Shown here in pieces: positions 3,831-55,300 of a stretch of 64,000 bases of DNA. The translations under genes were made by a program, and so were the position numbers. A model generated the notes under the pieces. It was not told where the DNA came from and ran no database searches. It saw nothing but the letters and a program-made list of their open reading frames with translations. How positions within the stretch are numbered: the first letter of the stretch is position 1; each line of letters begins with the position of its first letter. The stretch is taken from the NCBI GenBank assembly GCA_965285935.1, contig OZ260661.1, positions 54,002,001 through 54,066,000 of the forward strand, given 5' to 3'. Source of the DNA: Ophelia neglecta. Lineage: Eukaryota.

Positions 3831-5258
3831 TACCCTTTAATCAAACTTTTGTTATTTGTAACCAGAGTTAACTCATTACTCATGGTCTTAAGTAGAAGGT
3901 CTTAAAACTGGAGATTTAACGTTAAAATAAATAAGTATGTTTCCATTTGATCAGTTTCAACCAGTATATATGGTTTGTGTTGCGCAGGTGTTGAATTAAA
4001 ATAATTTAGATTAATTTACTTGCTCATGTGTTTTCGGTAAGGTAAATGGCAGTGTTAGTACCTGAATTAAATTAGAATCATTTTGTCCAGATCATCACAT
4101 CAATATTTGGAAGTGATGACATCAACCGATAAGGTCCATCACTTGTAAAGATGAGCGACATTGATTCAACAAGTAGGCCTACGCTCACAAGTCATACCCC
4201 TGCTACCATACTCATTAAACATTGAACTGATTTTGACCTATAATGATCCCTTAAACCCTGTCATTCTAAAAAAAAGTTGATATAATTTATTTTATGCGTC
4301 TTTTAACAGTATTGACTTCGTCAACGAGACAGGATTCCCGGACAAATGAAATTAAGGAGAGGAAATTCAACCTAGGGTCTGAGCAGAAATAACTCAACTT
4401 AACGATTAGGAATGCCATGTGTTGCTTTGAGCATCACCGTCTATGTGGGTTTACTGTGTGTTCAAGTCACGGTGTCGGAAAATGTGATTAGGCCGTTCAT
4501 ACATGGAGCCTTTGTAGTGTCAATAGAAAACGGTTCATTTCATTTGATGGGCAGACGACACGAATTTGTTCCGTTGATACCCGGGACGGGTCAGAAATGC
4601 ATACGGAGGCCATAATTGGCTAGACATGCTCGAAATCTCGGCTGACGTGAATAACGTTTGAATTGAAATGATCGATCGAAAGAAACGTTTAATCTGGAGG
4701 TAGAAGGTCCTTCTGCATGGTGGGATTTTTTATATCTGTCGACCAGCTACAACCTAGACTTTACAGTGTTAATGCAGATTTTTATAATATTCCTTTATAT
4801 AGGCCTACTACTAAGCATTAAACAGGCCTGTTCCCCTCAGCACAGAAAACCCGAGTCAATTTTGAATTTATACTGATCCATAATTGAGCAGACTAGCTAA
4901 GAGTGTTTCCAATCACACAAACATCATTTTCTCAAGACACATTTTTAGAAATTAAATTGGCATGGTCAAAACTGAATTAGATTTAAGATGAACATGGTTT
5001 AATCTTACAGATCTAATACAAAGTGACCTGCATCCTTCTAATAATTGATTAAAATCAACGGCAATAACAACGAAAGGAAGAAAAAAGGCCCAAGAAACAG
5101 GTGGTCCTCTGAACTGGCTTTTTATAGATAAACAAATCTTGTACATGATTTTACCTTAACTTTTTGTTTAGGTGCCATATACATCATTTCAGGTAATGAT
5201 AAGACATGCTAGTTGTACCTTGTTTTTACCGCAATGATGAAACTTTACCCAGTCTTGA

Positions 5259-5431
5259 CAGTGGCGGATTTAGGGGGGGGGGGTAGGAGACCCCCCCCCC
5301 CCCCAGGGCCGAATTTTGGACCCACGCAAAGTGGTTTCAAAGGGTTGGTACCGGGGACAATCCAAACATTGCCCTTGTCAACCTTGGAAAATTTGCCCCC
5401 CCCCTTTCCTGAAATCCTGGATCCGCCACTG
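5259..5431. mobile_element. MITE with CAGTGGCGGAT termini and 5-bp TSD (hAT-like, non-autonomous)
   Basis: Termini CAGTGGCGGATTTAGG...CCTGGATCCGCCACTG, internal poly-G/poly-C runs, flanked by CTTGA at 5254-5258 and 5432-5436. Confidence 0.85.
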
Positions 5432-6584
5432 CTTGAATATGACTTCAATTTACCGCCAAAAAAGCAAACAGACCTTACTGCGCTGCACGAACTTGATCAT
5501 TCTACTTGAATTTAAAAACTTAAATCCTCTGCATCTAAGAGTATCAATCTGATACCGCGTGGGATTGTGCTTTTTACACGCCTTTAAGATCTCGCTTTCC
5601 AATAGAGTAAAGTCCAACTAAAATGCTCAGGAGTGAGGAAGAAGTTTACATTTCTTACACCAAAATGACAATATTTTATTTTATAATATTGTATAGCAAT
5701 CCGAGTGAGATTCATATCATCAACCAAAACATTACCTCTACAGAAAGTATTAGTTTTAGAAAGTATTGGTTATTTATATATAATAAAATAATTATATCAT
5801 CTATAACTTTATAAAGTACGATACAGGCTCTATACGCCCTTGGTACATGTATTTACATGACAATGATTTCATGTGGAAATATCATGACAAATAACATAAT
5901 CAGAATAAATGTGTCACCAAATTGATGGCGTCCTGTCTTACATTCATAGGCAAAATATTAAGTTGGATACGTCTCTGAATATAGAGTCGTTCAGACAATT
6001 CATGAAAAGTATTTATTTAAAATCAGGCAAGGCAGGTGGACCTGTCGGTACCATACTGGTTGTTTGGAGCAAACTGTCTGTATATTTTGTTGTTTTTTCA
6101 AAGCCTTCGATCCATATTAAATCGTCATATTTTGTTCCATTTAATGGTTAAATCTAGTATTCGTAGACGGGTGATAGACACATTCCGTGATCTGTAAGGG
6201 GACCTGGAGGGTCAAGAAGCCTTCAGTTAGCCACAACTACACTCTTAGCCCTCTATTAGCATATTAACACATTATTATGCATATTATAGACGGATGCCGG
6301 AGATAACTTATTCCTTATGGTACAATCCAAATTCCAGACCATTCTAACATCCCCTCTCATTTATCGGTTGTTGAGAATGGGAGATTCTATCTGAAGGAAA
6401 GCCGTCATTATGATAGTGTTAATTGTGCCCCTTAATGAATGGTCATTTTACCATGTCATGATTAAATACAATTTACACATTTGATCCGAAATGCTGATCG
6501 ATGAACGGGTCAGATGACAGATTAGATCCCTAATTAGGTCACGTTTTACGGCGAGTCCCGCCGGATCATATGATCCAACCCAGC

Positions 6585-7592
6585 TGACAAGTCTATAGCG
6601 CGTGGTACAATATCAGCCCGGCTAACGAGTCTAGAACGTGCTGATATAATATCAGCCCGGATGAAGAGTCTAGAACGCGCTGATATAATATCAGCCCGTA
6701 TGAAGAGTCTAAAGCGCTGATATAATATCAGCCCGGATGACGAGTCTAGAGTGTGCTGTATAATATCAGTCCGGATTACGAGTCTAGAACGCGCTGTTAT
6801 AATATCAGTCCGGATAACGAGTCTAGAATGCGCTGATATAATGTCAGCCCGGATGAAGAGTCTAGAATGCGCTGGTATAATATCAGTCCGGATGAAGAGT
6901 CCAGAACGCGCTGATATAATATCAGCCCGGATGAAGAGTCTAGAACGCGCTGATATAATATCAGCCTGTATGAAGAGTCTAAAAGGCGCTGATATAATAT
7001 CAGCCCGGATGACGAGTCTAGAGTGTGCTGTATAATATCAGTCCGGATGACGAGTCTAGAACGCGCTGATATAATATCAGTCCGGATGAAGAGTCTAGAA
7101 CGCGCTAGTATAACATCAGCCCGGATGAAGAGTCTAGAACGCGCTGGTATGATATCAGCCCGGATGAAGAGTCTAGAATGCGCTGGGATAATATCAGTCC
7201 GGATGACGAGTCTAGAACGCGCTGATATAATATCAGCCCGGATGAAGAGTCTAGAACGCACTGATATAATATCAGTCCGGATGAAGAGTCTAGAACGCGC
7301 TGGTATAATATCAGTCCAGATGACGAGTCTAGAACGCGCTGATATAATATCAGCCCGGATGAAGAGTCTAGAATGCGCTGATATAATATCAGTCCGGATG
7401 ACGAGTCTAGAACGCGCTGATATAATATCAGTCCGGATGAAGAGTCTAGAAGGCGCTGATATAATATCAATCCGGATGATGAGTCCAGAACGCGCTGGTA
7501 TAATATCAGTCCGGATGAAGAGTCTAGAAGGCGCTGATATAATATCAGTCCGGATGAAGAGTCTAGAACGCGCTGGTATAATATCAGTCCGA
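6585..7592. repeat. 39-bp minisatellite, about 26 copies (consensus GCTGATATAATATCAGCCCGGATGAAGAGTCTAGAACGC)
   Basis: Directly visible tandem array. Each unit holds a 17-nt inverted repeat GCTGATAT-A-ATATCAGC plus CCGG and TCTAGA palindromes. It explains the 13-aa-periodic ORFs at 6751-7670. Confidence 0.97.
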
Positions 7593-10500
7593 TACACACA
7601 AACACCTGTCCTGGGGAGTAATTATCGTAATTATCGTGATGTCATGTACTCGCGGGTTAAAGGAGCCTAATACCCTTGTAAACATACAATCTCTCGTCTC
7701 GCAAGCTTCTTTGACGGGTGACATAGGCCTAAATACCACCGACGTATTTTACAAAACAGTTTGTATCGAAATGTTTAGTTAATATTGACAGTGCATGTCT
7801 ATTTTCAGCTTTCAAATATAAAGAAAACCGCCACCAACGGTGAACTTTTTTTGTCCTTAGATATAAGGCCTGAAGCATCTTATGAAGAAGTCTCACCAAA
7901 TTCAATTTTGATCGAATGAGGCAGTTAGCCGTAAGATAGAAGAACGTCTTAAGTTTTTGCGTATTATATATATCAAGGCCTAATGGATGGATGGCAGGCT
8001 CTATCTGATGATGTTGAAAAGAAAACTTACGAAGCTCATATTCAGTTACAGTACAGTTTCGAAAATGTGTGCAATGTTCGAGGTGGACGTAATTGAATTT
8101 TTAATATTCTTACAAATTTCGCAAGATGAGTTACCATATAATTGAAAGAAGTTCATGCTTACTTTGTATCTTCCATTGTAAGTAACTGGAATTTTCGCTT
8201 AATGTAATAACCGCGATTTCTCCTCCCCTTCAATTGCTGTATGCGTTGAATGTAATAGTCAAAAAGTAACTGTGATGTACATAGCAGCAAATTGAAAATC
8301 TTATGCATAAAATATATCAGTTTTTTTCAAATTTTTAAAACTGATGATTGAAAAAAGAATCTTATACTTTAACAATCTATAAAATAAGGAGAAAATGGGA
8401 TTGCTAGAGAATGTGGACAGCATCTTCATTCACTTAATTAATTGGCTGTCTGGGCGATAGGAAAGGTAATTACGGTACACCGCATTTATAAGTTAAGCAG
8501 ATATCTCTTTACAAATAGGCCTTTTATATGAAAGGACGGACACTGCTTTTTTACTGATTGCGGCGTGGGTTGCGAAATAAACTACTTTTGAGAGCTTCAA
8601 ATTGTTCAGCCCTTCCCATCGTCCGCGAAATGATTCAGAATTTAATTAAGTTCGAAATTGAACGGAAGCAGCGAACCCAACCGAATAGGAAGGCAGCTTA
8701 TATGCCAATATGATGTTTAAATATTAATATATTGTATCTTACATCTCACTTACAAAAAATAGGTACCCACTCAGTACAAATTCATTATTTCGAAATTTAT
8801 TTACAATTGTATCGACTCAAACTATGTTGTAATACAGGTATTATTGAAAAAAGTCTTCTATAACTTAAAATAATGCCGTATCGGTTTTAGATTTGAACCA
8901 CTTTTCAAATTTTGAAAATCCCTGCGTTTTAAAATAATTGAAAAAAGATGTACAATAATATACTACTTATATGGATGAACAAATGATTACCCTTTTAATA
9001 TTTTCATAATTTATGAATTAAATTTTCATCTCCTGGGATTGATTTCTGTTAAACAAAAAGTAGTATAAGGATTTCCAAACCAACCATTTGCATCGATACA
9101 TGTATGTTCGTTTAATGTTAACTGATGTACAGTTTGAACAAACTCGAGTTGGATTTTCTAAGAATTTTCCTTTCAAAAGGCCTGCCAAACTACATAGGCC
9201 TATACATTGTATAAGTATATAAGTTAACTTTTTGTTATGTTCACACTTGTTGATCACTTCTTTTTCGTATATTGACTTTCTTTTAATTTAGTTATAGGCC
9301 TATTGTTGACGTGAAACATCACACATTGTTACTCGTCCTTTCTCCGAAGTAAGGAGTGAAATATGTTTAAGAAAGTCTGGATAGTATGGATAGTATACAA
9401 AATGGGACTCTGTACTGGCAGTTTTGTAGACTTTAAAGAGTACAATAACCGCATCTGACATGCCTTATTGAATAATACCTGTACATCTTCCTGACAACTG
9501 TTCTTGACATACAGAGAGAGTAGAACCACAAATAGATCAGTGATGTCCAAAGACTCAGCTCTTGAAATCGAGTTCGGTAATCAACTTTAGTTTGGTAATT
9601 TAATTAATCCGACGTATTTATCTGCGCATAGATTATAAAAGCTTACTGTTGACTTGGTATAAAAACTGAAACATGGTCGACAGATAAAACATTATAAAAT
9701 CATACCACGGAAAGACTCATTAAGACTTACATTTGTTTCAATAAGAGTGATAAATATATGGATTTTACCTCCACTTCACGCTTCACAGATCATTGTCCCT
9801 GTCTCCTTACGTTTCAAATGTCACATTTTCGTCTCTATTTTCTGTTAGGCACTGTACAATTAAAATAAAGTTTCTTGTAGATTTATTTTTTTTTAAAGGC
9901 ACAATAAAAAAAATTGAAACGATATTTAAAATTTTAAAAATTCTGAAACTCTATGTCCATTGAGCCGAGTGCAATGTACTAAATTTAGCTGCAACGGTCC
10001 AAGCCTAAAGACACGGGGAGAGCTTACCCACAAGATGAATCCTACGTATCTATAACCCCCCCCCCCCCCGGCACCGCCACCATGGACCAGATGCTGCTGG
10101 TATGGGCATTCTATATGGGTTACCGGCGTGTTTGTCGATTTGTAGCATGTCAGTAGTCGTTTTGGGCAAGTAACCCACCAAGTCTGAAACCAACACAAAT
10201 AGCGGAGTGTAATTTTTAAAAAGGCTGATGTCGAAAACCATCAAACTAATTTAGAAATAAATAAAACGATAGAAGATGCACTAGATCACGGGGAGATCAT
10301 GCTGCAAGCGTCACAAGGTGTATCATAGTTGCGATGTCAGGCTCAACAACATTGGCTTCCGGCAAAATTGACGCCAGAGGTGTCTCATCACCACTAGGTC
10401 GATGATGAAGGCAATGTTATGTTCAACCTGACAAATTTTGCCATTCATAATGAGGGGCCCAGATTGAGGATAGTGTACCGATAGGTGCACTTGCCCTGGT

Positions 10501-17200: not shown

Positions 17201-20200
17201 AAGCATGTGCCGAGAAAATAGACTATTTCTGCCTAATTCCCATCACAGCCCTTTTAAAGGTTAAATCAAAATGTTATTTGGGCTTGAAAAGCATTTTAAC
17301 AGTTTGATCTTAAGCGTAATTGACTGTCCGCTAGAAGAAAATTATTGATTTCTACATTGAAACCGATTTTGTTCGTTTTTACTCTATTTTTCTATTTTCA
17401 CCAGCATAGGCCTATATTGAAGCATGACTGAAAAACCTTCTCATTACATTTAGAGTTAGTGCTTAAAACATTAAGACAAAGTAATTTGAAACAATTTTAC
17501 GGACCTTGTTGGTTCCCTGAGAAGAAAAGTGGCAACATTTTGTACCAAAAACCATAGGAATTTGGTTTATGATGACATTTTAAATTAGCATACATATTAA
17601 GATGTAAGAAAAACATGACAAAATCATATGCTTCCCTTGAAGATTTTCCTTCCACATATGTGGGAGATGTTGGTCATTTATTCTGTGCTTAACGATATTA
17701 TATATATAGTGTGGGTGTAGAAAACTAGTATTCGGCCCGATGTGTACTAACCCATTAAATCAAAATATATATTTACACATTCCAGCCATTGGAAACTTTC
17801 ATGCTCAGCCTGTTGATATGAATGAGATAGTAGTTTATTTTGACAAGGCCATTTCATTCTTCCCCAGTATTTAAAACACAGTCCAAAAACTTTTGATGTT
17901 AGGTGATATCTTTCTAACTCGGCACGAGCTGTTAGCCCCATTTACAAATGATGTTTAGATCATTAGTTTATGGTCGAAAGTATTACATGGGCTAAACCTT
18001 AAACATAAATATTTAGAATGTGTATTTGTTTATTAAATAATTGAAGATGAAGCCAATGTTTTAGTCGACTGTGATTTATGTTTTACACTAAAAGACCATT
18101 TCATTGGTAGGTTTTTTTGTAGTTATCCATGGAACTAGTGAAATTAATTCATGCATGTGTTAACTAAAGACTCTGTTTGTTTGAATAACATGTCTATGTA
18201 ATTACGAAAAAAATACAAGACTTGTGTATCATAAAGCTCTTTAATTTCTGAAGTATACATCTTCCTTCCATGTTATACTATCACGGCTGTATTCCTAGAT
18301 CTAATAAAAAAGAAAATACAGGAAACCTTCAATAATAATAAGAAGAAATACAATTATGAACAGAAAGAACATTGCTGACAATGATTTTAAGCAACATGAG
18401 TATTGATACATAAATTACTTTCATCTATTGTTGGGGGCTTAAGTTCATATCGTTATCTTGCTACCCTGATCATCGCTGGTGACCAAACATGGCAGCTTTC
18501 CTTGTCATTTTTAACGCAGCGACACTCTGTACATAACCTCGACACCGTAATATCACCCTGTGCAAAACTGGAGTACCTAAATAGTCATGCAAGCAGGTAT
18601 TAGAACCTGGACCGGCGTCAATAGACATTCACCTACCCAGCCTAAAGTGCTGGATATCACGCCGTTCTCTCAAACATGGCAACAGCTCATAGAAAATAGA
18701 CCAGTTTTGTACCATTCACAGACAAAACAAATTTGATCAAGGTAAATGTATTAGGTAAGAGCAGCCCTCTGGACATAAAGGGCCGCCCTTTGTGTGCGTG
18801 CGTGTGTACGTGTCCCTGCTGTACGTGGGAGCGATGTGGATTATGTCTAATGCATTGGATACTAGCTCCATAATATACTCATACAAGCTGCTTATCTCAA
18901 ATTTTAGCTATTAGTAATTGCCGTGTAAGTCAACTCCTGAAAAAACCCACCCTTGTGCATATTAAATGAAACGAAAATGGTCAAAGAGTCACTTACAGTT
19001 TTGTCCTGCCATCCAAAGGTGTGCCACTAAAGCTTTTTATACATTGGTCATTATATTCGGAAAATTGAATAACATGGGATAAAGGGCGATACATTTTTCA
19101 ATTTCATCTTCGCGCTTTGACATATACACATTTAGTTCCATAGTGTTATGAAAATGCTTTTGTGATAAATTAATTGAAAACTGTGTTCACAGCCATAAAG
19201 GACGACACATTCAAACACTTTACTTGATTTGCGTAAGGACTGCATGCTAACTTTATATGATGTGAAACAATAATGGAATGAGAGTCTGTATTTTGAAACC
19301 CACCCTGAGTGCGCTTAAAACATTAAATTGAACAAAGAGCAAAACTGATAACAATAAAAGCACATTTTTATATTTAATATGGTTTAAACAAGCAAACTTT
19401 AGGTAAACAATTTTCTGACAAACTAGATCCTTACAGCGTGGATACTCAATTATTGTAATAATCTATTGACTTTTGCTATTAAATTATATATTTTAGTTTT
19501 GAAATGCTACAAGAAAATATATATTTTTTTTTCATTAAGTGCCAGGTTTTATTTTATTGGTGTCATGAAGGAGATTTAAATAGATTTTTTTTCCAACTCT
19601 TATTTACCTGACAAATGCCAGAATTATGTGTTAAAATAGCTACTTTAAATGTTATGGCAATATTAAAAGTTGTATATTATTAATACAAATCTAGATTTTG
19701 AACTCGCTTAACTAGTTATTTCATTTAAAATTATTGAAATCGTCCGAGAACATTTTGTATGGGGCGCCAATTCTCTGGGTCTATGATTTCCTGCTTAAAA
19801 ACATTTTCTGCTATCCCTAACTCAAGTTTTTATTTGGCCTTGAAAATTGGAAAAGTTAAGACAGAAGAAGCGTAAAACGCAGATACAAAATGTAATCTAG
19901 GGAGTTTCTTTAACTCAAACACTTGACCCGCTAGAGTAATGTCGAGAATGCCTTAGGAATCACTTTGACTATCCTGGCCCTTCATGGACCACACTGAGGC
20001 CACCGAACTCCTCTTCTTTATGGCGGCTCCTTCAACATATAATAAACTTTCGTCAGATGATTTGATTGTTTATTCATGCTAACAGAACATTTTTAAATGG
20101 TATCATTAGGTCTGAAATGCCCGAATAAAGAACGATATTTCTGTAATAGTACATGTAGTAGGTATGCATGTTCATAGGCCTACATAGGCTACCTTTGACC

Positions 20201-26200: not shown

Positions 26201-26360
26201 TTGTTTGGAGTCAAGCAAGTCACTGTTTGACTTGTCCATCGGTAAAGCTGGGTTTGTACATATGTTAAGAGCAACAAGGCGCGCGCTCTGGGCGTCCCCT
26301 GCCCCCTGTTCCGAGTAGGCGTCTAGCCTACAGTTATAACACACTCAGCCACCTGCACCA

Positions 26361-26384
26361 CTGACTTCTCTTCTATCTCCCCAG
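26361..26384 (+). other. Branch point, polypyrimidine tract and 3' splice acceptor of the kinin coding exon
   Basis: CTGAC (26361-26365), then ttctcttctatctcccc and AG (26383-26384), directly before the exon carrying the ATG. Confidence 0.85.
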
Positions 26385-26402
26385 GTGTGCCGGGAATTCA
26401 AC

Positions 26403-26963
26403 ATGTCCTTACGTCCAGCAACTTTCCAGCTTCACTTAGCCTACATGGCGTTGGTTGTCTTTTCCTTGGCCCAGTGCGCCTCCATTCTACGGGACTCTCA
26501 TCTCGGAGACACTTTTGGGGGACAGGAAAACACAATTTCAGACGTGATCAATGACTTAAAAGAGGACCCTCGTTTTGAGGCGCCGGCCGCCCTCAACGAC
26601 CTGTCTCTCCTTGGTGACCAGGAAGAAAAAAGGGCTTTCAATCCCTGGGGCGGGAAACGTTCGTTTAACCCTTGGGGAGGCAAAAGGAGCGACGAGATGG
26701 AACCCGTACGAAGAGGCTTTCAACCGTGGGGCGGAAAAAGATCATCTCCTTGGGGTAGACAGCGCAGCAATGCCTTTGGCCTTATAGGCACAAAACGTGT
26801 ATTTCAACCGTGGGGTGGTAAAAGGACGACATTGGATTCCCTACCGGACAGGATGAACGAAGTTTTAAAGAGAAGATTCAACGCATGGGGAGGAAAACGA
26901 GCCAAGCTTAACCGCTGGGATGAGCAGAGAGCGTTCGGAAGTCAAGTCAGCGAAGTCAAATAA
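26403..26963 (+). CDS. Lk: Kinin/leucokinin-type neuropeptide precursor (186 aa, single coding exon)
   Basis: ATG in CAAC-ATG context, 18 nt after a strong splice acceptor. Hydrophobic signal peptide (MSLRPATFQLHLAYMALVVFSLAQCA) and an acidic pro-region follow. Five peptides are flanked by KR/RR and end in the G-KR amidation/cleavage signal: AFNPWG, SFNPWG, GFQPWG, VFQPWG, FNAWG. These match the kinin C-terminal consensus FX1X2WG-amide. The ORF track's GTG start at 26385 is simply the exon's first bases. Confidence 0.93.
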   Translation: MSLRPATFQLHLAYMALVVFSLAQCASILRDSHLGDTFGGQENTISDVINDLKEDPRFEAPAALNDLSLLGDQEEKRAFNPWGGKRSFNPWGGKRSDEMEPVRRGFQPWGGKRSSPWGRQRSNAFGLIGTKRVFQPWGGKRTTLDSLPDRMNEVLKRRFNAWGGKRAKLNRWDEQRAFGSQVSEVK

Positions 26964-39800: not shown

Positions 39801-42800
39801 CACAAAAAACTGTCAATGTCCGCGCTGTCAAAGTCACCGTATTACACTATAGTGACTATAAAAACATCATTCTTCCTTGAAAAGTGATTTGTTGGTTTAG
39901 TCATTCACTTCAGGGTGTATTTTGTCTTGATGTGATAACGGTGGTTATTCTTACAGGAAAAAAAGTAACATAGAACGGCAAAACGTAAGACAACAATGAC
40001 AATATGGTAAACAAAAGAAAACGGTGAGCAATAACGCAAACAATAATAATGCATGTGGCGTTTGGCTGTATGTGGTTTAGGAATAGATACAAAATAAAGG
40101 GCAAGCTGAAGGAAAACACGTTCTGCGGAACCATATGGGTGGGGGGTTTCCGTGTGAAACGTGTGGAACTTAATTCCGGACATTTGTTTTCATTGAAGTC
40201 AAATATTTTTCTTCATTTAGTCTTTAATGCTGCCTTATTGGCAATGCTTCTCTTGGGGGGGGGGGGGACGAAAAGGAGTGCGTTTGATCCATATTATGAA
40301 AAGTTATCCAAATAAAATGCATAATTTTGAGAGATTAATTATCGGTTTGTGATTTCTCACAAGTTATTTTTTGGCGGGAAAACGCAGAAAACTTTTGTTA
40401 GAATGTTCAGGATTTTGTGTGGCACATCGAATCCCTCGACAATAAATTTTCCTATCTAGCATGACAAGCACACCATAAGACGACATTCCGTGAAGGACGC
40501 GGGTTGTCCCTTGATTCCAAACCTTCAAGGTGAATGTGTCTTTCGAGAGACTATTGAAAATGCTATGTTGAAAACCTAATTATTTTCAACGCCTCCGCAA
40601 GAGCCATTATTTGATTATGGCGTTTCATCGTGGCACCTTGAAGTTGATTAACCCTGGAAAGGTTGTTTGCATACACAGACACAAAGTTTTTCTTTTAAAT
40701 AGGTGCAGCCTTTATCTATAAAAAATAATACCCATTACTCTATTTTCCTCACTTCAATATGGGGACAATATTTTTAGGCGTACATTCTAGGCCTAAGTGT
40801 TGGCCACCTACCCTTAAATAGGGGGAGGAGCCAGCCTATCCACTAGTGTCGTAGCACTGTTTAAAGTTTAAACACTACGCTTTCTTTACACCTTTCTTCT
40901 TGCAAACAACCGGTCCTCTATCATAATGGTGATACTAGATAATATCATTATTGACTGTTCATTTAATCAAATGTTATTTTGATAGACAAAACAATCAATA
41001 CTGCTTGGCCCCCAACTAAAACAGCTGCTCAAGGGTTCCTGGAAATATCGGACATTTCAATAGAAATTTCTTCATGCGTGTTTTTACTTTTCTGTCGGGT
41101 ACCCAATTTTTAGACATTCTTGTCGTCTTTGACGCGAGTGTGCTAAAATGTGGCATACAAGGGACCCGTAACGACGTGAACACTGCACAGGTTGTCAAAG
41201 ACAAGTATTTGAATGTATTATTCGGGGTAAATCCGACACGCCAAGTCTGCCTCCATCCCAAGATGACAAAGTCGTACAACAAATATGTTGTTTAACTATA
41301 GCCTCTAAAATTGTCTTTATTGCACATGCTCTCTGTGATGATTACATTTAGATGTACCTCTCGGGTACGTGCGGAGGAGTCTCTAAGGCGCAAGCCTCTT
41401 AACCACATGCATTATTTCTATCGCTATTCATTCAAAGAGAACATTATATCGGGTTCAAAGAGGGGGGATTATTCCCTAGGAGATATTGACCCATTTAATA
41501 AGCTGGAACTCGTGGTAATAGTAACTTGTTAGGACCTTTTATTAATTAAACAGATCGATAGGCCTATAATGAGCGTAGGGCGTACGCAACAGGGGAGAAG
41601 CTTGTTTGCGACAGATGACAAACGCTCAATGTCAATGAATGATGGCCATTAGCTTGCGTTCCAACGAATTAAAAGTATTCAAGACCGCAGCCATCAGGGC
41701 CCGTGGGAATGTTTTGTAGGCCCTAGGGCCTATATAGGAGTTATGGCACGCGCCTTGTCACGTGGTCTGCTAGGGCGAAACGCGGCAATTATACGCCAAG
41801 GGGGTAGATGTTCAGGTTGACTAAAAAACACCTTTTTAAAAACTGACGCATGTTTGCTGAAGATTGTTTGGTTTGGTAAAATTGTCTTTTGTGTAAATGT
41901 TCCTTTCTACTCTACCTTGTACCCATAAATATGTATTACCCCATGTTGTTTATACACATGTATTTATCTTTTCATATATAATTATTTTATTCATGTATTT
42001 TTTTATTGACCATTTATGTTTTATTTTTCTTCATAAGTTGTCAAGTGCCATTGAACTAGTCAACAAGAAAATGAATACGAGTAATTTAAGATATATTTAT
42101 AATATTAAACGACCAATGATGATTCTATTCGTCTACACCTTGGGCCCACCAAGTGTGTGACTGGACAAGTGATTAATCTTTATGACATTTGGATGCAGAT
42201 AATGGAAACAGTTTTCATAGAGTTAGGCCGGGAGTGAACCCATGAGCGAATAATCTCTGAGTAGTTAAGCAAACTGCATAGTCAATCTATGAAGGGATGA
42301 GGGTGGGGGGAGAAAAATAAGGTATTGGGCGGTCAAGGTTAGATTGCGTGGAAAACAATTATTCACATACGCAAAACACCAGTCCCTTTCTTAATATTTT
42401 TAAGGGAATTGCCCAAACTAGAAACAGCCAGTAGTAGAAGGACTCAGGTGTTTATTTTAGAGGATTGAACGCTGTACACAATATACTTCCCATTATCTTC
42501 TTACAACTAAGTATAAACGTACAACGAAAAGCGCACTTTGTGCCTTAAGGTGAGTTTTTCAGCTAAAATGCATCATAGAAGCCGTTTGTGGGGTGAATTG
42601 ATAGATCAGCAAGGTCTTATATTGCTCCTAAATGCACCTCAGAAGTCGTTCATGAGGTGAATTGATAGCCTAATAACCTTCAGGCTTTGCACACTTTTCA
42701 ATATTGATAGCTAAAGGTAGGCTTGATCCTATTAAGATAAGCAAACGAGTTGTTTTAAGGATAAAACTTGATATATTGTGAGCTATGATCCATAATAAAA

Positions 42801-45800
42801 TGTGATGCCTGACACCGGCTTTGACCTCCTCCCGCAGTTAAGTTGAAACGGATATGACCACTTACCTGTGAAACTCGATCATTGACGATTCAATGTATAT
42901 CGATATACCAAAACATACCATGTTGCTCAGACTGATGAAAAAGAAAACTAAAATCTGTTCGGCCATGACAAGTTTCACTTCTAAAGGCAGAACTCCATGA
43001 CGAATTACACAGATACATATTGCATTACTTCCGGATGTTGGATAAAGCATGCGCACGTTTTGAGTTTCCGCTTAAAGCGCCCACATAGTTGTGAGCTATG
43101 TTAAGCTACGGGGACATAACTTGAGAGAGTTTAACGCTTTAAATGACAGCTCACACGGTATAATCCTAATGTTTTATAGTGTAACTAAATGCCAAATCAC
43201 TGTGTTATTGCTAGGAGTAAACGGAGAAGCGTTCACAGTTTAGGTGACATGTAAACATTTGCTTAATTTCGTATTTTATGCCACACTCTTCCGTATTTCG
43301 GGACCATTATTTAATAATACACATGGGACGGTTTGAGTAGCATAAAGGGCAATAAACTCCTTTTACCGTACCGCAAACGATGGGCATCGCCCCTTGCCAA
43401 AATAGCACCAGTTTTATAATAATATTTGAACTGGTTTGAATATTGGTGGATTAAAGCTTTGCAAGCACTTCAGCCGCCCAGTTATGTAAGTCCCAATGGG
43501 AAATCAATACAGTCATGTATATCAAATAACGCAAACATTTCTTTTTCATATTTGTTGAATATATTTAATAAAAGACATATACATGGCGATTCACAATTGG
43601 GAGATGGAATTTAGTTCTACCTTTTTCGTGATCGATTAGTCATCAATTCAGTTTGAAGAATATCATAGATTGTTGATAAGTCGAATTTTAAATCAAAAAC
43701 ACCTCATTTACCGGTATTGTTTCGTTCTCGAGGTGGTAGGTAGCCCGCAATCGAGATGCCAACAACAAAACTCCGCCGAACGGATACATTAATCCACGGA
43801 AAACTGCCGAGCGTATGTGCTCCGTGGGCATAATAATCCTGTACAGAACTTACCAAAAGAACATATATAGGATCTTTTAACTATCTTTCTGGCAATTGCT
43901 GTTCATACACAACTAAATACACATCACCTAATAGGACTTAAACCAAGACGGAACTCTCTCTATAAGACCCACTATACTACATTTTCGAAATGCCATCCTG
44001 CTGTATTTAAAGATATTTCTAAAACTGTTTTCTGAATGAGACAGAACTATCTTTTGTTTCAAAAGTAGCATTTACAAGCATTTACATTTACAAGGTGTCA
44101 AATACCGACAACAAATTCATGGACTAATAAAATGTAATGTAAGAACGCACATTAGAGGTGTCAATGAACGGTGGCTAGGCAGGAAAATAGTCAGATATAT
44201 TTACGAGCTTTATTTTCTTGAAGGTCTGGTTTCGATAGGAGTGGTCGGTCATATATGGCTACAAGGTAGGTCCCGTGTGCCTTTTGGTAGTAGGAAATCT
44301 TCTTTATTTTATTCAGCGTCCAAAACGGATTCAGAAAATGTTTGGTGCCAACCTGGCGATCCAGGCAGACTCGTTTTTAATATACATGTTTCCATGACAA
44401 CCATCTAGGTTGCTGGGAATCCTGCAAATGGTCATTCTGCATAGGCCTATGTCTTGGGAAAAATTATGTCAGTATTCATACATGTATGTATTCAAGCATG
44501 GGCTAGCTTATTCAATCTTGATATTATTGCAGTGATAAGTTCATTGATCAAAGTCGTCAATGTGAAGTGCATAAATCTATACTGTTGCGCAAAATCTGAC
44601 CAATGTGGACACTGCTTTTTTTTAAATAGGAATATCTTGGCATAGACTATTAAATTTTTCCTTGTCGCGTACAATGTATTGGGTTGATGAATATCAGTTC
44701 ACAGGCTGAAAAGATACTTTTACTGAACAGAGTATACACCGAGAACCGGTCTAGAATATACCTTTGTACTCATACCAAGAGAACGGGAGTTGACACCACG
44801 TTGCCAAGGCCAAATTCAATAGTAGGCCTATAATGCAACTGATTCTCATTTTATAAAGAACGGAAAAGCAGAAATAAAAGGCACGAATAAAGTAGGACTA
44901 CACGAAGGAAATTCTGCTATGATTTGAAGGTACACATATCAAATTTTATTGACAAAACACAGTAAAAAATGTGTTGTGCTAAGGCTACCCACGATGTACA
45001 TGTATATGCACAAAAGATAGCCTTTGCTTACTGCCAACTCTTAAAAAAAGGGCGTCCACCCATCATCTATAGGCTGGTTTAGTAGGAATGTTTTCTCTGA
45101 ATACCGTGAGTAGTGGTTACATAACCCTCGTCAGAACATTTTCGACCTTAATTCAGACTCAGTTCTCCGCGAATGTCTCCAATCGTGACTTACTAATACT
45201 TTCCTCTATACCTGTCGAAATATGATCGCTGCGTATCCATAATAACTTCTCCTCGACGCTTGCCGCCAACAAGTTTTACAGAGTATAAATGGTCTCAAGC
45301 TCTTATCACTTCCCCAGGCATTAAAGGACCGCCACCGTCACCCCATGACCACCACCCCACCCCACCCCGCCCTAAAAAAACGTACAGACTCCAATCAGCA
45401 TGCAGACAAGTGACGCCCTGAACTTTTAAACTCCACTTTATCAACAACTCTGATATACAAATACAGACTGCAGGGCTTATAAAGAAAAAAAACAGTTCAG
45501 AAAATGTTTCTCCTCACCTCTTCCAGGTCATTATAAAAGATTGGTAATTTAGTCAAGCCAACGACAGGGTATTTGTTACAACCCCCAATGAATTTTTAGC
45601 TGTGTAACAGCCTGAACGGGACACAGCTTGGGAAATTGTCTAGGTCCACACATATTCTTGTTGCTTCCTTCTATGAAAAAAAGGACAAGTAAAAATGAAT
45701 ATTTTCTTCATTGAAAACAAACAGAAGTTTGTTTTTTTACGCCTTCTCTTGTTTTCACAATACAGCCTTGTGACTTCTCTTCATTCGCCTAATCCCCCCG

Positions 45801-45814
45801 CCCTCTCTCAATCT

Positions 45815-45905
45815 ATCTATTAATAAAATTTGTTCGTAGGCCTATTTATAAGAGTGGACAACGTCACAGGAAGAAGAAAAATAGTGTCACTGTCATAATA
45901 ATAAC

Positions 45906-45986
<81 letters not shown>

Positions 45987-46940: not shown

Positions 46941-48604
46941 TATTCTCCTGAGCAGTACCCCTAGTGCGTGATTTTGCGATTGTGTATGTGTTTACTATAC
47001 AAATAAAGGGAGTTACTTCTAAAAGCTATGTCAGCTGACATTTGGACATAGGATGAAACATTTTTAAGCTAAGGCCCGAATCGTTAAAAATGTATTCATA
47101 TAAATGTATCGTCTCCTGTCATGGCACTCGCTAACATTACTACTACGATTCTATGAACTGTTTCGTGATATGGCGTGACGGATAACCGCGGCTTTTTACC
47201 AGTGAGGTATTTGGGAAACGGGCCTATGCGAGCACAGCTAAAAGGGCCGATGTTGGCCGGAGAATGTCGGGGAATTGCCAGTGTTCCGATCTGCTTAGGC
47301 TGGTAAATAAAACCTACCCTTCAGAAGGTGTTGTGTAGGAGTCCCAACGCTAACATCCCGCTCGCTCTCCACTGGGTAGATATATCTTACATTGAACAGC
47401 ATAATTTTAATAGACACACTAATGTTTTAAACATGACAAATAAAAAACAACAACAATTTATTATTCAACGTAAGAATTAGATAGGCATTTACTAAGTTGT
47501 TGAAGATGTGTTTTTGGTATCAATCATCTTTGTTGCTGGTAAACACCTTAGTATACTAATGTATTTAAAAGTTATATTAATACGCATTAACTTTATGGGT
47601 GCTTATAAGCTCTTATAAGCGTAATAATGTAACTTTTTGAGGTTATTAATCAGTGGCAATAAGTCAAAATACACAAGAATGGCGTTAAGCAATAAATGAA
47701 AAATAGTAGTGTTCATAGAAAAATCTGGCGGCGATCGTATAATGGCCGTTCAAGCGTTTAATAAGTTGTAGAAAGTGTTATCCTAGTCTTTTAGACATAT
47801 GTAAGTTGAGCTTTGTCAGACAATCCCCTTTCTTCTCTTCTTCTCATTTTAAATGAGTTTCATTTCTTTCTAAGAAATTGGGGGTAAACAAATGTTTCAG
47901 AATGGACACTCGGCAGTTATATGTCCAATATATACATATATATACATATGTACATTACATGTATACAGTATACATATATCCGAGCATAATGTGTTGAAAT
48001 CACTTGGTCCGTTCCGATATGTATAATGCTCAGAGAAATTATATCATTGTAAGGTACTGAGGAGACCAAATGAGCTAACAATAACAACTGAATAAATGGA
48101 TTCATTTTACACATTATTAATATAATCAAGTACCTTTTAGGCTATCTAGATTGGCTCCAAGGCTGTAAGCTTTCCTAAGCTAATATATTGACCCTGCCCT
48201 TAATAATTACATCGCGAACATTTTGAAAACTAAGTTATTGCTACTCACTACTCAAATTTGGGATTGAAGCAATTTTCAACCCTTAGGGTATCATTTTTGT
48301 AGACGCACACGAGGAAGTACCTTTTCTATCAATTAAAGAGACATGCATTTAAGAGCCACAATAACAATTGGTGAAAGAACGGGTAATTAAGTATAACGGT
48401 AAATAAATTTGGATAATTTGCATAAATAAAATCAAATAAAGTCCCATCTAAATTGGCGGAATTTCATATAATTAAACGTGCATTTGGATCATGCCCACTT
48501 TGATGGACTATGAATAGACTCTCTATCTTTTTAAGAAACTAAAGTTCAACATATGCAGACCATGGTTTTCTTACCTTATTAGAAAATCACAGCAATTAAA
48601 ATCA

Positions 48605-49900
48605 ATAAAAATAATAATAATAATAATAATTCAAAGTTGTTTATTGGTCCTTGAAAATAAATTTAAATACAAATTTACATGGATAAAACATACTGAAGTA
48701 ACTTCGATAAAAAATTAATAGGATGACCAATTACATTTTAATATGTACATCTTAAGAACAACGGGAAATGGACCTCCATGTCGGGTATATACCCGCCTAT
48801 AGAGGATTAACGAACTAACTTATACGGAGAACAACAGTGAAGGTATGCAATGTCAGTTATACATTAGATGACCAGGACAGGTTACATAGTAGTGGTTATA
48901 ATTTTAAGCAAAAATTGGGATAAGTAAAACGAGGATAGTAGTTGGGATGTAAAAGCGAAGAATGTATTGGTTTAGATTTCATCAAACAAAAAATACAAAA
49001 TTAAATGTATGCTGCATCAGTCTGGCCTCTTACCAAAGGCACACAAGCTCCCTCACAAGGTAGCAGCTTTTGGGGGAGGGCTGAAATAAAAGAAAAAGAA
49101 TAACGTTAATACAACGTAATGTATTCCCTTCGTAGCAGAGTACACAGCTCCGCTCTCTTCGCCTGTAGCAGTGATGCGGAGAAGCTATGCGATAAGCATT
49201 AGCCTCTGCTGCGAAGGGTACGTAATGTACAGACAATAATAAATACAATAGATGCAGGTTTCTAAAGACTAGTATCTTGTTAAACACCACAAAAGGATAA
49301 TAAAAAAATACAGACATTAAATACATAAACTAAGAGCTTTATACGACAAAACATTTAAAACAAGGTAATTAAAAACAAATATTTACAAAATCAGTGAACA
49401 AATACAACTAAAGTAAAGTAATGATAAATATCCCAAAAAAACTAGCACATGTTTTAAAGATACAATAAGACAAAAAATTTAAGACAAAACACTTCAACCG
49501 AAATCAAGCATATAAATCATTCAACTTATTCATTAGAATTATAAATTAAAAGCAAATTTCAACAAAACATCAAAATTAAAAATATATATAATTACATGGC
49601 ATACATCGAGGTAACAAAGACATAGTAGCAAGATAATTTAAGGAAATCAAATTAAAACAAACAAAGGGTTTAAAAAAATAAACAAATGGCAACTATAGGA
49701 TTAATAGAAAACGGAAACAATGATAACAAAATACAGCAGCAATTAAACAAATGAGATATGTGATACATAAACTAGAATTAAAACCTTAAATTAAATTACA
49801 ACAAAAGGTAATAATAATCATATTAGAACTATATTTGAAAGTTAAAACAGCATCTTTTTAATAACAATTAACGATAAAAACAGATTCTAAACAAAGCAGT
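48605..49900 (-). mobile_element. Possible 3' tail/UTR of a non-LTR retroelement
   Basis: On the minus strand, AATAAA (48640-48645) is followed by a (TTA)7 tail (48610-48630). The adjacent 1.2 kb is strongly A-skewed on the + strand and carries a roughly 57-bp motif (49024-49080) repeated at about 50267-50335. No ORF2 was recognised. Confidence 0.3.
49124..49219. mobile_element. About 96-bp mini-MITE flanked by 10-bp direct repeats
   Basis: Inverted repeats CCCTTCGTAGCAGAG (49126-49140) and CTCTGCTGCGAAGGG (49204-49218), one mismatch. ACGTAATGTA occurs at 49114-49123 and 49220-49229. Confidence 0.6.
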
Positions 49901-50099
49901 TACAATGGTGTTAATTATAAAATATCGAGAAGAAATAACAGAAAACCGTACTGACATTTATCTGTAAGACTCCTGGGCGCTGTAAAGGAATCTATAATAA
50001 AAGAAAATGTGGATGTTAGTAAATGACAATTATTCACAAATATAGAAATATTAAATGAGAAAAATAAAAACAAAATGCTGTTGTTAGTACATGACAGTG

Positions 50100-50189
50100 C
50101 CATCATATGTTTTGCCCCCCCCCCCCCCACTTTTTATGCCGATGATGTAGAGTTGGCCACCTCACTTAGATTTTCCTTCCTACGCCTCT
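50100..50189 (-). mobile_element. Truncated inverted copy of the 60053 MITE left end
   Basis: CATATGTTTTG-C(n)-ACTTTTTATGCCGATGATGTA...CTCACTTAGATTTTCCTTCCTACGCCTCT is a near reverse complement of 60054-60148. Confidence 0.7.
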
Positions 50190-51980
50190 TTGCTACTGTT
50201 AGTACATGAACATGAACACCATTTTAACTAGGTTACATAACCATTTTAACTAGGCTGCTTTAGTGAGGCCTTTACCGAAGGCACACAGGCGCCCCACCAC
50301 GACAAGGTAGCAGCTTTTTATTTGGGGGTGGGGGGGGGGGGGGACGAAATAGTAAATGGAAAACGAAACAAATTAATATAAGGGTCAGGTGCGGTCAGGT
50401 GAAGCCAGGTGCGGTATATCGACGAACTGTCTATCTAACCATTCCTGTTTCTTGATACTAAGATAACACCAATTTCTAATCCCCAACCTCACATAAAAAC
50501 CCATTTTCACATTTCCACCGCTTCCTACAAGTGTATTAGCAATTATCCACAGTTATAAAAAATATAGTTCTAAAGGAACAATAGACATTTGTCTATAAGA
50601 AAAAAGGAATCTAGGATGGAAAGAAAAGCTGTAAAGCTTACAGTAATAATTTTAATTAATTCTAAATAATAGTAATTAACATAAAACGATAACAACAATA
50701 TTCTAAAAGCAGTAATAGTCTTCTTTGACCCCCCCCCCCCCTCCCCTCCTCCCACACTTTTCCATCTAATCATACTACCATAGGACTAACGACCCCACTC
50801 CATTCTTTGTCTCACTGAATGGCTTCTTCTATATTATTCTCCCTGCACCCCCTCCCCCTGTGGTTGGTGGTGGGGTGGTGGGGTTAAAGCAAAGAGAGTA
50901 AGCCAAGGGATTTGTTTATTTTTATATTTCAAGGTTAATCAACATCATCAAGTAGTATGACTAAGGTGCGTGTTGCGGACGCAGGGATTGCGCTTAAGGA
51001 TTCTGTATGGACAGAAAAATAACTTACCTGCGCATGCTGCCTGAAGACTCGTAAATGATCACAAAAATCCCTACCGGGTATCACAGTCACTTTTACAGCT
51101 TCCAAATTTCCTCCGGATCAATGCCATAAACAGAATGAAGTATTTATTATTAGACCACACGGTGCAAAGCAGCAGTGGGATTGGAAATTTCAAAGTTCCG
51201 GAATCTGTATTTCATTTCACGAAGACCAATTCCGAACTTCGAAGAAAAGTTTGTTCGTTGTCGTGTGAATCGGCTACTCAGATTATGTTTACTAATCATA
51301 ACAGGAACCTTGAAAATGTAAAATGCAAACCAAGAAAATAGATATAGGCCTACACCTAAATTGGGCAGATGTAGGCCTACTCCGATATAAGATTTTCACA
51401 ATTGATTCCAAGATGTCTGCCTTTGCATAGCTTATAGTATAGAAGCCTATATGTATAGGAAAGACATGGCTAATGTCCTGCAGGTAACTCTTTCAAACTT
51501 GAACTATACGAGCAAAACCGCTTGGTTATTTGGTCCCTCAATTCTATTGGCGGATGCTGATACCATCCGGTAGCCAGACCAATGAGAAATAAGACACCAA
51601 TGAAGACAGAACCAAATAAGGGCAAAACTTCCGAATCCGATTAGACTTAAAAAGCGTGAAGTTGGACCATAGTTCATAGTTCATGGTTCATTATTCGAAT
51701 AGTGGTCTGGAGTGTGAAGTTGGCACCGAGTTCATGGTTCATTATTCAAATATTAAATTACTGCATGTAATTAGTTTGTAGTTCATAATTATTGAGTGGC
51801 TATCTGAGCACAGTCTGACTTTCTTCTACCCTTCCCCTAGGGGGTCTTGCCCCACCCCCGGGGCGTAAAATTTTTGAAAAATTACATTGTACAGGATAGT
51901 GTTTTTTATGCGTTTTAGCACCTAAGGATCATTTCTAGATATCAAATTTTGCATGTATTTTTGGGTCCATTTACACTTAG

Positions 51981-52394
51981 CCAAGCTCCAGCACGCGGTT
52001 CATTATTGAGAATCGAATAATGGTCTGGCCCCTCCCTCCCTACCTTCGATATTTTGGCCCACCAAAACCACCTAGTCCCCTCAACAGGGTGCTAATCTGT
52101 AGCATGGTATCAAAAAACCTACCCCCTGGACGTTTTTATAGCCCCAGGGGCCAAATTGCGACTTCGAATAATGGTCTGAGAAGTTGCAATTTCTTCCAAG
52201 CTCCAGCACGCGGTTCATTATTGAGAATCGAATAATGGTCTGGCCTCTCCCTCCCTACCATCGATATTTTGGCCCACCAAAACCACCTAGTCCCCTCAAC
52301 TGGCTGCTCATCTGTTAGATGGTATCAAACAACCTACCCTCTGGACGTTTTTATAGCCCCAGGGGCTAAATTTCGATTTCGAATAATGGTCTGA
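51981..52394. repeat. 215-bp tandem duplication (about 1.9 copies) inside a repeat-derived block starting near 51665
   Basis: The unit starting CCAAGCTCCAGCACGCGGTTCATTATTGAGAATCGAATAATGGTCTGG occurs at 51981 and 52196. The GGTTCATTATT...CGAATA motif is also present at about 51685 and, partially, 51735. Confidence 0.9.
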
Positions 52395-55300
52395 CTCCTA
52401 GTTCAGTATTCATTGCGGCCTCCTAGATACCTCAAGTTACGAAAAAAACCTCTTTTTACTTTTCGACTCAGTTTTCGATATGAACCATCCCAAAACCTTC
52501 TTCATTACACAAAAAGCTGAAAATTTACAGAAAATTGATGTCCAGCAGTTCAGCGCACAATTATAGGTGGAGGGGGTAGCAGGTGTATTTTGGGAACCAA
52601 AATTGACACAATGTTAACAGCTATAGGCCTACATGCATGCATGTACTCTAGACATTATTATAACTATTGTCAGTGCAACTCACAAGCAGCCATGCCTATT
52701 GTTGAAATAAACTCTTTACACAAACAAACATTAAAATATCCATGTTAAGTATACAACTCAAAGGGTCGATATAAAATACGTGTCATTGACTGTCTTTGTC
52801 ATTGGGTCAGCTAGGTTACACTGATCCAACACCAGTACCTTCGTCAGTGTCACCAGGGGCGGCAGACAGCTACAAAACACGTCTCATATGGCCAATGAAA
52901 TCATTCTTATTTGTAACATGGCAATTATATCTAAAACCAGTGATTTTTACACGGTATTAGACTAGGGCCTTTATAAAACATGTATACACCCATTCTTCTA
53001 AGGGCTCTTTTTCCTGAATGGCGGCCTTGAATAGCCAAATATAACAATTCCTTTATCATAGTTTCATAATGATCACGGAAACTTGCATCACGCAACTTCC
53101 GCAAAGGTATACGTACATCAGCCATGGGCTGTGCCAACTGCTGTTAACGCTCCAATGAAATCGATTGGACGGGTACATATACATGCCATAACGATTGCCC
53201 CGCTGTGTTTGCCTTTTTCTTTTCGTTCCGAAAATCAGCTGTTCTGAAGTTCATTCTAACGTTAGGAAGGATAATTTGATTGTGCATTATAATCGAATGT
53301 CAAGGTAAATGTCGTGATATATGATTGAGATGCCGCACAGCATAGACGGTTTATCGTAATAATTTGTCAAAGTAAGCAAGTACGGTTGTTCCCAAGTGGC
53401 TACTCAGAAGACGACAGGGCGTTACTAATTACAGAGGTGCAGGTAAACTCTGGTTAATTTGCGACTAATGGGCGAAAAATACACAATCAAAGCGTTACAT
53501 AGCATTTTCTTTGGAGCATTTTTGTTCCCCTTGGCAGCGCACGAAGGGATACTCGCGGAAGCAATATGGCTTTACTAGGAGAGTTATTATACTGAAATAT
53601 ATATGAAATCGAAAAAGGCCCAGTTACCAGCCGTGACCAGTCTCGACTTCGAAACCTTGAGAAGGAACTATGACTTTCCTTTGACCTTTGACCTAGGGCT
53701 TCAGAACAGGATTTTGAGAAACAATCGATCAACACCAATTCGTCCGGTGCCCGTTCACACTATCCTTTAATTTTAATCGAGTGATTGTTATTTGATTATA
53801 TGTACAATCCGCGCCAGTATACATCAATACATTGATACATTAATATATTGAATTGAAATACGGACTGTTTCCTATCATGTTACATAAGCCACAAAATTAA
53901 ATGGATTCTTGTGACATTTATGAAGCATCGGAATTAATGCAGTGCAGGTAAAAAAAACGCAAATTAGTTTCATCAGTAGTGCTAATGCCTCTGGTTAACC
54001 GAGTTTGTATGTGAACACGAGTGAAATATTTCAGACAACAATAAATTCCTCATGCCCCTTCACTTTCACCTCCTTCGGGTTTCTTATTAACATATAGATA
54101 TATAACCAAGAACTAGTTTTTCATTAAGCCCTCGTTATCACATTTTAAGCTTTACATGTTTTAAGGGACATGAACTAATGAGACTTGATTAAGAAATGCG
54201 CGGGTTCTACTGTTCAAAAAAAATACAAACAAGACGGTGATCTATAATTCACTAGTCAAATATGTATGCGAAATATTATTTTTTACATATTTCAACATTG
54301 GTTTGATTGAAAGTGATGTAGATTAATTAGGAGGACCTTGGCAGCGACCTTGACGCTGGATGAGAGCAGGTCTAGATGGTTGCCCCAGAAGACAGACATT
54401 GACAGCAGTCAATGGCGGCAGTCGTGGATTACAGACATGACGATGGAAACCCCTACTAATCATAAGTAGTCAGGGCGCACGTTATCGAGATAGAATAATA
54501 TGCTTTCGACCATGACGAGCAGACGTTGACGGTGAACCTTGAATTTTTAGACGCCTTTTTCCATCAAATTGTACTGGGTTGTTTGTTTATCTATGATGAT
54601 TCTGGCAACCCGTCCCACTCATCTAAATAATACATATTAAGTGGCTATATAAGGGCTCATACATGTAAAATGGTCAAATGATATATATTGGATACTGCAA
54701 ACGAAAAAGGTCTTTGCAATTGTAGCTAACCCTGATAAACAGCGTCACAGAGGAACTATCACAATGTTGATCTTTTTCGCCAAACAACCTTTCAACATTA
54801 ACTTAAAAGTGAGACCAAGATCAAATTTAATATCGTTACTTTATTCGTTGCACATGACTCCCTATATATTATTCAATACATCATGCATAGTTAAACCATT
54901 AGAACGCATCGAAGGTTCAGTTATCAAAATTTGATCTTTTGAATGGGGTTAAAAAGATATCAAATACCTTGTATTTGATTTTTCATTTATGAATAATTAA
55001 TTCGGATCTAGATTCCCAATGAAAATATTAATTATCAATTGACCTTGAAAATGGGACTTAAGATCAAATTCAAGGTCGTCAGTGGATTCTTTGAATATGA
55101 CTTTTTGTTAGTGTTCCATACATTTGCCCTGCTTATATTACACCGTTAAGGCATCAGAGGGCTCGTTAAGATTTATATACAACTGTTATACGATACATCT
55201 AGTGCATTATTCAACTAAACGGCCTGCTGGATGCAGAGAAGATTTTTAAAGTTTGATCAGGGGTTATCAGTAAAATATAAGTCACAATGTTTCTCAGCTT

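Follow-up and report, generated by a model that had tools for sequence, protein, structure and literature searches.

A TA-bounded palindrome of the Ophelia neglecta genome as the probable excision footprint of GG-tipped Fot-like pogo transposons

DNA transposons that insert at TA dinucleotides duplicate the TA, are cut inside their tips and leave tip bases behind after end joining (PMC2874221, PMC4561436, PMC9976928, PMC7913693; here and below, statements from cited papers refer to excerpts of them). In C. elegans, the excision footprint of Tc1 is taCATGta, which is described as rare (PMC3520976). Members of the Fot/Fot-like pogo family possess a DD35D catalytic core and an HTH_psq domain and duplicate TA (PMC7386202). 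Elements of the PIF/Harbinger group (mPing type) have a 3-bp TWA target and mostly excise precisely (PMC4561436), while ISL2EU elements have GG tips and a 2-bp duplication at an A-AT-T target (PMC4482050, PMC4122938). The subject of the present work is a palindromic word, TAGGCCTA, that recurs in a 64,000-nucleotide stretch of the Ophelia neglecta genome (assembly GCA_965285935.1, contig OZ260661.1, positions 54,002,001 to 54,066,000 of the forward strand; hereafter the window). With a probability of roughly 0.8, the word is the excision footprint of a Fot-like pogo transposon with GG...CC tips, formed when the break was closed by end joining.

The word is clearly enriched. Exactly 20 copies of TAGGCCTA were counted in the whole 64-kb window, at every coordinate given by an earlier sequence-only reading and nowhere else. 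That reading had put the GC content at about 36%, which was measured at 37.3%, and the expected number of copies below one; Markov models of orders 0, 1, 2, 3 and 4 give 0.75, 0.71, 0.95, 1.36 and 3.9 (both-strand figures halved), such that its expectation holds for orders 0 to 2 and is exceeded at orders 3 and 4. Against the order-3 figure, 20 copies have a Poisson p of 5e-17, and TAGGCCTA is the top non-simple palindrome of the window. The k-mer check that the same reading had proposed was thus positive in the window (20 vs 0.7–1.4 for orders 0–3) and also in the whole 762-Mb animal assembly, which contains 69,501 copies vs 3,592 of the reversed word. This genome count takes in tandem arrays, with a 40-bp period near C1:0.64 Mb among those listed; about 65,000 copies lie above background. 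In the 264 kb around the window there are 63 copies, and evenly spaced samples of the genome totaling 400 kb hold 24 vs 3.7 expected, making the window region about four times denser than the samples.

The flanks of the window sites had been called unrelated, and no long repeat family is indeed common to them, except that three sites (51345, 51372 and 52624) lie inside one interspersed repeat. Contigs from three public runs of one sample span the six sites from 38236 to 45837, each site being crossed by at least one contig whose gap letters are too few to accommodate a 6-bp loss, and four of the six by a contig with several other differences. These six words are therefore not assembly errors and are at least partly common to haplotypes. 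No motif indel was seen among the 12 of 115 indel rows listed for contigs on 35–55 kb, which were swamped by the repeat.

The origin of TAGGCCTA by insertion was demonstrated by comparing homologous copies, and genome-wide the word is largely a six-base insertion at TA sites. When 30 copies of the interspersed repeat were aligned, the word at 51372 proved to be six bases cleanly inserted at an ancestral TA, and that at 51345 a second six-base insertion, both in the window copy alone; at 51345 the adjoining bases also differ between copies and the ancestral TA is a reconstruction. An unbiased, all-against-all catalogue yielded 133 polarised insertions of 3–14 bp, 39 of which duplicate TA, and the commonest word among these 39 was TAGGCCTA, with 5 of the 26 six-base events. 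A motif-centred test covered 328 sequences and 2.0 Mb of loci, an event being a site that is six bases shorter in a homologous copy. Here, 16 of 46 testable TAGGCCTA sites were listed as events, or 15 after a reversed false match (L283) was dropped, vs 5 of 473 for non-palindromic TA-N4-TA controls (15/46 vs controls, p = 2e-13). A recurrent indel at ancestral TA sites, which had been suggested as a further check, is therefore what the alignments contain, with a single TA as the ancestral allele and TA, short insert and TA as the derived one, as in footprints of the IS630-Tc1-mariner/pogo group. The heavy cut-and-paste activity that had been proposed is not only past, since element copies with about 98% identity differ by scars.

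Might the word instead be a protein-binding site that arose by substitution and is maintained by selection, a case that has been made for TACATGTA in Phytophthora? The palindromic form and the greater density in this unique-sequence region would suit such a site, and at one site in the family of the window repeat, substitution does convert TAGATCTA, TAGACCTA and TAGGCCTA into one another. Not every copy of TAGGCCTA is therefore a scar. However, as an origin for the word this is contradicted by its appearance as whole 6-bp indels in transposon interiors, and one-mismatch decay products of the word are as abundant as would be expected if it were unconstrained. There is accordingly very little to be said for selection as the source, although single scars may conceivably have been used later as binding sites. 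A minority of the window sites would owe their presence to chance (about 1–2 of 20), to inheritance within repeats (52624) or to substitution.

Local slippage, template switching or amplification within repeats must likewise be considered, given that tandem arrays add to the genome count, that the word at 52624 was inherited with its repeat, and that a 4-mer of the word lies close to 6 of the 16 indel scars. Against this, the other 10 of the 16 have no local template, neither GGCC, TAGG nor CCTA being present within 30 bp, families that are unrelated have the word in common, and the excess persists in the evenly spaced samples. A local origin of this kind is as hard to credit as one by selection.

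TA-targeting elements with GG...CC tips and DDE transposases, which had been predicted from the window, are present in the genome. The survey scored 150 of 445 DDE_1 candidates, and ends were read for about 36 TA-flanked element types; seven of these start with GG (all GGG) and none with GGC. All seven are pogo types, and the terminal bases of these TA-targeting elements are the bases inserted in the word. The first family (L225/L226, a pair that emerged among DDE_3 loci) is a 4.6-kb element whose copies are 99.6% identical, with TA-GGG...CCC-TA ends in unrelated flanks. It has one DDE_1 exon and 24 matches in the genome, and 19 of the 21 left ends that were read start TA-GG. A remnant of the same family lies about 30 kb before the window (L007:7115-10000 and L008:1-31), 90–92% identical and with its right end intact. 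A second element, L273, is 6.4 kb long with a 728-codon frame encoding HTH_psq and DDE_1, and its tips have 28 exact matches vs 1 for the control. The further GG-tipped types, L320/L321, L322, L327, L329 and L331, came, like L273, from DDE_1 searches. A DD35D core was found in all four GG types in which the catalytic core is readable; catalytic spacing is 35 in L273, L313, L320, L322 and L327, and Pfam DDE_1 and HTH_psq were both matched in L273, L322 and L327. With TA on both sides and unrelated flanks, the donors have the terminal inverted repeats and TA duplication of Fot/Fot-like pogo elements. In a tree confined to sequences of this genome, with the 20 of 26 rows that yielded a core, the GG types group with AC and TC types (support 98/96), apart from the CCG and CAG types. 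Clearly, GG-tipped Fot-like pogo donors exist and are young, with copies up to 99.6% alike.

Other screens were negative. No TA-GG inverted-repeat element was found within the window, a nested-insertion screen gave no TA-GG insert, no empty paralogous site of the donors was seen, and no inverted repeats were found in the first 30 DDE_3 loci, the flanks of which were too short. At 32887 on the minus strand of the window there is a lone end resembling Fot-like TA-GGG tips, with no partner and no DNA match to five donors tested. Two more TA-GG inverted pairs were noted elsewhere, at L125:1314-1611 (298 bp) and L185:934-6818 (5.9 kb). Upstream of the transposase of L273, within the pogo element, L273:2890-3336 has a weak HIRAN-domain match (E 3e-4, below the cut-off).

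Two other element groups were rejected as donors. The genome holds many young ISL2EU families (L169-L188) with DDE_Tnp_4 and YqaJ exonuclease, in copies of 5–8 kb that are 96–99.9% identical. Abundant and young as they are, their ends are mostly AT-bounded, and none of eight copy pairs has TA-GG...CC-TA ends; one left end starts GG without a preceding TA. PIF/Harbinger elements of the mPing type need a 3-bp TWA target, and the empty sites include G-TA-C and C-TA-G contexts.

The sequence-only reading had favoured a different donor, an element with GGC...GCC tips. Cut with a 3-nt stagger, such an element would leave overhangs able to anneal through GC, which would give TAGGCCTA, or along all three bases despite a mismatch at the centre, which would give TAGGCTA or TAGCCTA. 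It is true that such a scheme embraces all three words and that, the donor survey being incomplete, an extinct or non-autonomous family could have been missed. Nevertheless, the survey found no GGC tips, and the scars are recent, so that a GGC donor should still be present. No recurrent TA-GGC end family occurs in 0.76 Mb; the sole candidate, a TA-GGC...GCC-TA look-alike at L013:561-900, was discarded when its TAGGC proved internal to the end of a longer repeat in 18 matches. Moreover, the occurrence of TACATGTA from CAG-tipped donors shows that a 2+2 fill-in works in this host. Such a donor is accordingly improbable, and the three words are better read as the 2+2, 2+1 and 1+2 fill-ins of 2-nt GG overhangs.

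A course of events for GG-tipped donors can be outlined. The element would insert at TA, duplicating it, and on excision its transposase would cut the non-transferred strands 2 nt inside each tip, leaving a GG overhang on each flank. Since two GG overhangs could not pair, both would be filled in and ligated to give TA-GG-CC-TA, and the loss of one base would give TA-GG-C-TA or TA-G-CC-TA. The seven-letter forms are present in the number reported before, 15 in the window (7 and 8), and 5 of 32 testable sites are indels in the motif-centred test. They are only weakly enriched, about twofold in the window (6.7–7.3 expected; p = 0.008) and 1.33-fold in 664 kb, and about half of those in the window are chance. 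The step from donor to scar is one that we infer rather than observe; on the best reading, scars are still being made.

If the word reflects the tips of its donor, other tips should have words of their own. For CAG-tipped donors, the corresponding TACATGTA is enriched 4.3-fold in the 664 kb, with 7 of 47 sites listed as events, one or two of them doubtful. An ACG-tipped element is matched by TAACGTTA (2.8-fold; 2 of 5 events) and GAG donors by TAGATCTA (2.7-fold; 2 of 14 events, one doubtful). Nine other palindromes together gave 1 event in 81, and the donor words differ from these with p = 1e-5 on trimmed counts, the word of the TC tip, TATCGATA, having been counted among the non-donor words. 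The base before TA is a purine in 16 of 20 cases for donor ends and in 23 of 32 for scar flanks, vs 52% at all TA. The canonical Sleeping Beauty footprint has 3 bases. The 3-nt products expected from GGG tips were not seen here, TAGGGTA and TACCCTA having 0 of 17 events, while TAGGGCCCTA was counted 833 times vs 485 for its control.

The rate at which scars arise was taken from 73 disjoint copy pairs of transposon interiors (246 kb aligned), which contain 5,192 substitutions, 615 indels, 10 GGCC scars and 3 GGC/GCC scars. Scars thus make up about 2% of small indels (13/615). At 1.9 scars per 1,000 substitutions, and with decay at eight positions, a hand estimate predicts that at steady state an intact word should occur every 4.2 kb, just as it does locally (63 in 264 kb); the excess of one-mismatch forms is 0.9–1.0 times the exact excess, as steady state predicts. 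If mutation is taken to run at 5e-9 and donors to number about 100, a second hand estimate puts the excision rate needed close to 1e-4 for each copy in each generation. Excision near 1e-4 is an ordinary value. Elements would likely hop or vanish long before they become fixed while neutral scars accumulate, and in this way scars could come to outnumber donors by hundreds.

A related possibility is that the same transposases leave 2-nt tips at TA by abortive or quickly reversed integration, with no full stay of the element. This too would account for scars outnumbering donors by hundreds. It also gains from the regional clustering of scars and from their sixfold higher frequency per substitution inside Fot-like copies (7/802 vs 6/4,390 elsewhere; p = 0.002), a small-number lead for either local hopping or abortive integration. 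On the other hand, the Fot-like excess amounts to seven events from few loci, the ordinary excision rate estimated above suffices, and no precedent was found in the literature examined. Abortive integration is thus slightly harder to defend than a GGC-tipped donor, and excision of resident GG-tipped elements is the preferred reading.

Several observations weigh against that reading. No site was seen filled, empty and scarred, and no filled/scar pair occurs at one site in the 2 Mb of loci. For nine of the 15 indels there is just one other copy to compare, and their direction is assumed, insertion being demonstrated as the direction only where many copies are without the word, and 17 of the 20 window sites have no homologous copy for comparison. 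The match of AC tips to TAACGTTA was noticed after the fact. Although there are many young pogo families with CCG tips, the enrichment of TACCGGTA is no more than 1.4-fold, with 0 of 2 events; nor is there an excess of TATCGATA (0.77-fold; 0 of 4), the word that would correspond to L324, a TC-tipped element of uncertain ends. The scar rate was measured in transposon interiors, where individual groups give anything from 0 to 17 scars per 1,000 substitutions, so the match of this rate with the local density may be partly luck. Finally, some 65,000 excess words stand beside donors in tens of copies per family, a balance that needs assumed mutation and excision rates.

The coordinates of the word, its variants and the associated repeat are collected in Table 1.

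Table 1. Copies of the word and related features, in window coordinates
Feature	Position	Strand	Basis or remark
TAGGCCTA, probable scar	4174..4181	.	word match; putative origin
TAGGCCTA, probable scar	4800..4807	.	word match
TAGGCCTA, probable scar	7724..7731	.	word match
TAGGCCTA, probable scar	9195..9202	.	word match
TAGGCCTA, probable scar	9295..9302	.	word match
TAGGCCTA, probable scar	17407..17414	.	word match
TAGGCCTA, probable scar, clustered with TACATGTA (20150) and TAGGCTA (20185)	20175..20182	.	word match
TAGGCCTA, probable scar	21185..21192	.	word match
TAGGCCTA, probable scar	22389..22396	.	word match
TAGGCCTA, probable scar	24599..24606	.	word match
TAGGCCTA, probable scar	31366..31373	.	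word match
TAGGCCTA, probable scar	38236..38243	.	diverged contig X3 record 17: 16 other letters, 0 gaps, no indel
TAGGCCTA, probable scar	40788..40795	.	spanned by X2 record 10 (0 gaps); 22 gap letters of X1 record 2 are unplaced
TAGGCCTA, probable scar	41559..41566	.	diverged contig X3 record 20: 7 other letters, 0 gaps, no indel
TAGGCCTA, probable scar	44442..44449	.	diverged contig X1 record 4: 20 other letters, 4 gap letters, no 6-bp indel
TAGGCCTA, probable scar	44823..44830	.	diverged contig X1 record 4: no 6-bp indel
TAGGCCTA, probable scar	45837..45844	.	X2 record 12: 0 differences
TAGGCCTA, 6-bp insertion private to the window repeat copy	51345..51352	.	1 of 30 copies; 24 of 25 aligned copies 6 bp shorter
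TAGGCCTA, 6-bp insertion at ancestral TA	51372..51379	.	1 of 30 copies; 28 of 28 aligned copies 6 bp shorter
TAGGCCTA common to other copies of the repeat	52624..52631	.	inherited with the repeat, no new event here
Interspersed repeat, ancestral-state control	48557..52714	+	at least 40 genome matches
TAGGCTA (7)	16436, 20185, 20700, 30218, 33953, 46758, 48138	.	word match
TAGCCTA (8)	20675, 23859, 26324, 26437, 31185, 42666, 46231, 58767	.	word match
Adjacent TAGGCCCTA and TAGGGCCTA, possible 2+3 and 3+2 variants	41717..41732	.	one such word is an indel elsewhere (L315:4857)
TACATGTA (10), Tc1-type footprint	5844, 9097, 20150, 44479, 44997, 47956, 54660, 55517, 56061, 62565		

Other features of the window were noted in passing. 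An open frame at 26340-26963 on the plus strand resembles a neuropeptide precursor, with a hydrophobic leader and about six F-x-x-W-G-G-K/R-R repeats reminiscent of the kinin FxxWG-amide consensus. The frame has no Pfam match, and an atlas comparison returned mixed neuropeptide precursors at 0.87–0.91. The TAGCCTA at 26437 lies inside this frame and is probably there by chance. A 39-bp tandem array at 6590-7591 (25.8 copies, 89% matches) is open in several frames. Small inverted-repeat elements occur in or near the window repeat, at 49124-49219, 50099-50189, 57919-58345 and 60048-60406, and include G/C-run elements also found nearby.

Transposon activity is usually counted from surviving copies, and the scars described here suggest hundreds of completed jumps for each of these. 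Scars could possibly offer a way to date activity and to read cut offsets from sequence alone. They also carry a caution: a palindrome in non-coding DNA is not necessarily a binding site, however strongly it is over-represented. A broader claim, toward which the evidence tilts slightly, is that palindromes of the form TA-xy-y'x'-TA constitute a readable, genome-wide ledger of cut-and-paste transposition, in which each word names the tips of its donor clade and scars exceed surviving elements by hundreds. GG-tipped Fot-like elements alone would then contribute, at a steady rate, about 2% of small indels, and similar motifs elsewhere, such as the TACATGTA read as a transcription-factor site in Phytophthora, might be scars as well. 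In the open-access literature, no paper was found on genome-wide TA-bounded footprints, on this word as a scar or on its donor type; TAGGCCTA itself is contained in 283 papers, and among 40 of their titles there was none about scars of this kind.

Comparison with known systems shows where the present one is familiar and where it departs. Like the footprint of Tc1, the word consists of TA, the first two and last two bases of an element, and TA, and TACATGTA is here also an enriched insertion with TA-CAG donors present; unlike Tc1, the tips are GG...CC, the donor is of the pogo type, and the scar stands some 65,000 copies above background. Passer (a pogo element), ZB and Sleeping Beauty (PMC9976928, PMC7913693, PMC2874221), as well as Stowaway/Osmar (PMC4561436), similarly excise at a duplicated TA and leave 0–4 tip bases after end joining. 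Those results come from marked-donor assays, whereas in the natural germ-line sequence studied here a single 4-base form predominates, with a cut offset that is deduced. Like ISL2EU as described, the donors have GG tips and a 2-bp duplication, and ISL2EU is itself abundant and young in this genome; unlike ISL2EU, with its AT target and mostly AT-bounded ends, the empty scar sites are TA. With Fot/Fot-like elements (PMC7386202) the donors share DD35D, HTH_psq, TA duplication and short inverted repeats with an inner GGGG run. Thirteen animal Fot/Fot-like rows examined in that paper's supplement start with CCG, CAG or CAA and none with GG, in contrast to the GGG tips found here, and the present elements reach 6.4 kb vs a stated pogo range of 1.2–5.2 kb. 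The chemistry of the footprint is already known; what appears to be new, as far as the open-access literature goes, is the word, the type of its donor and its weight across a whole genome.

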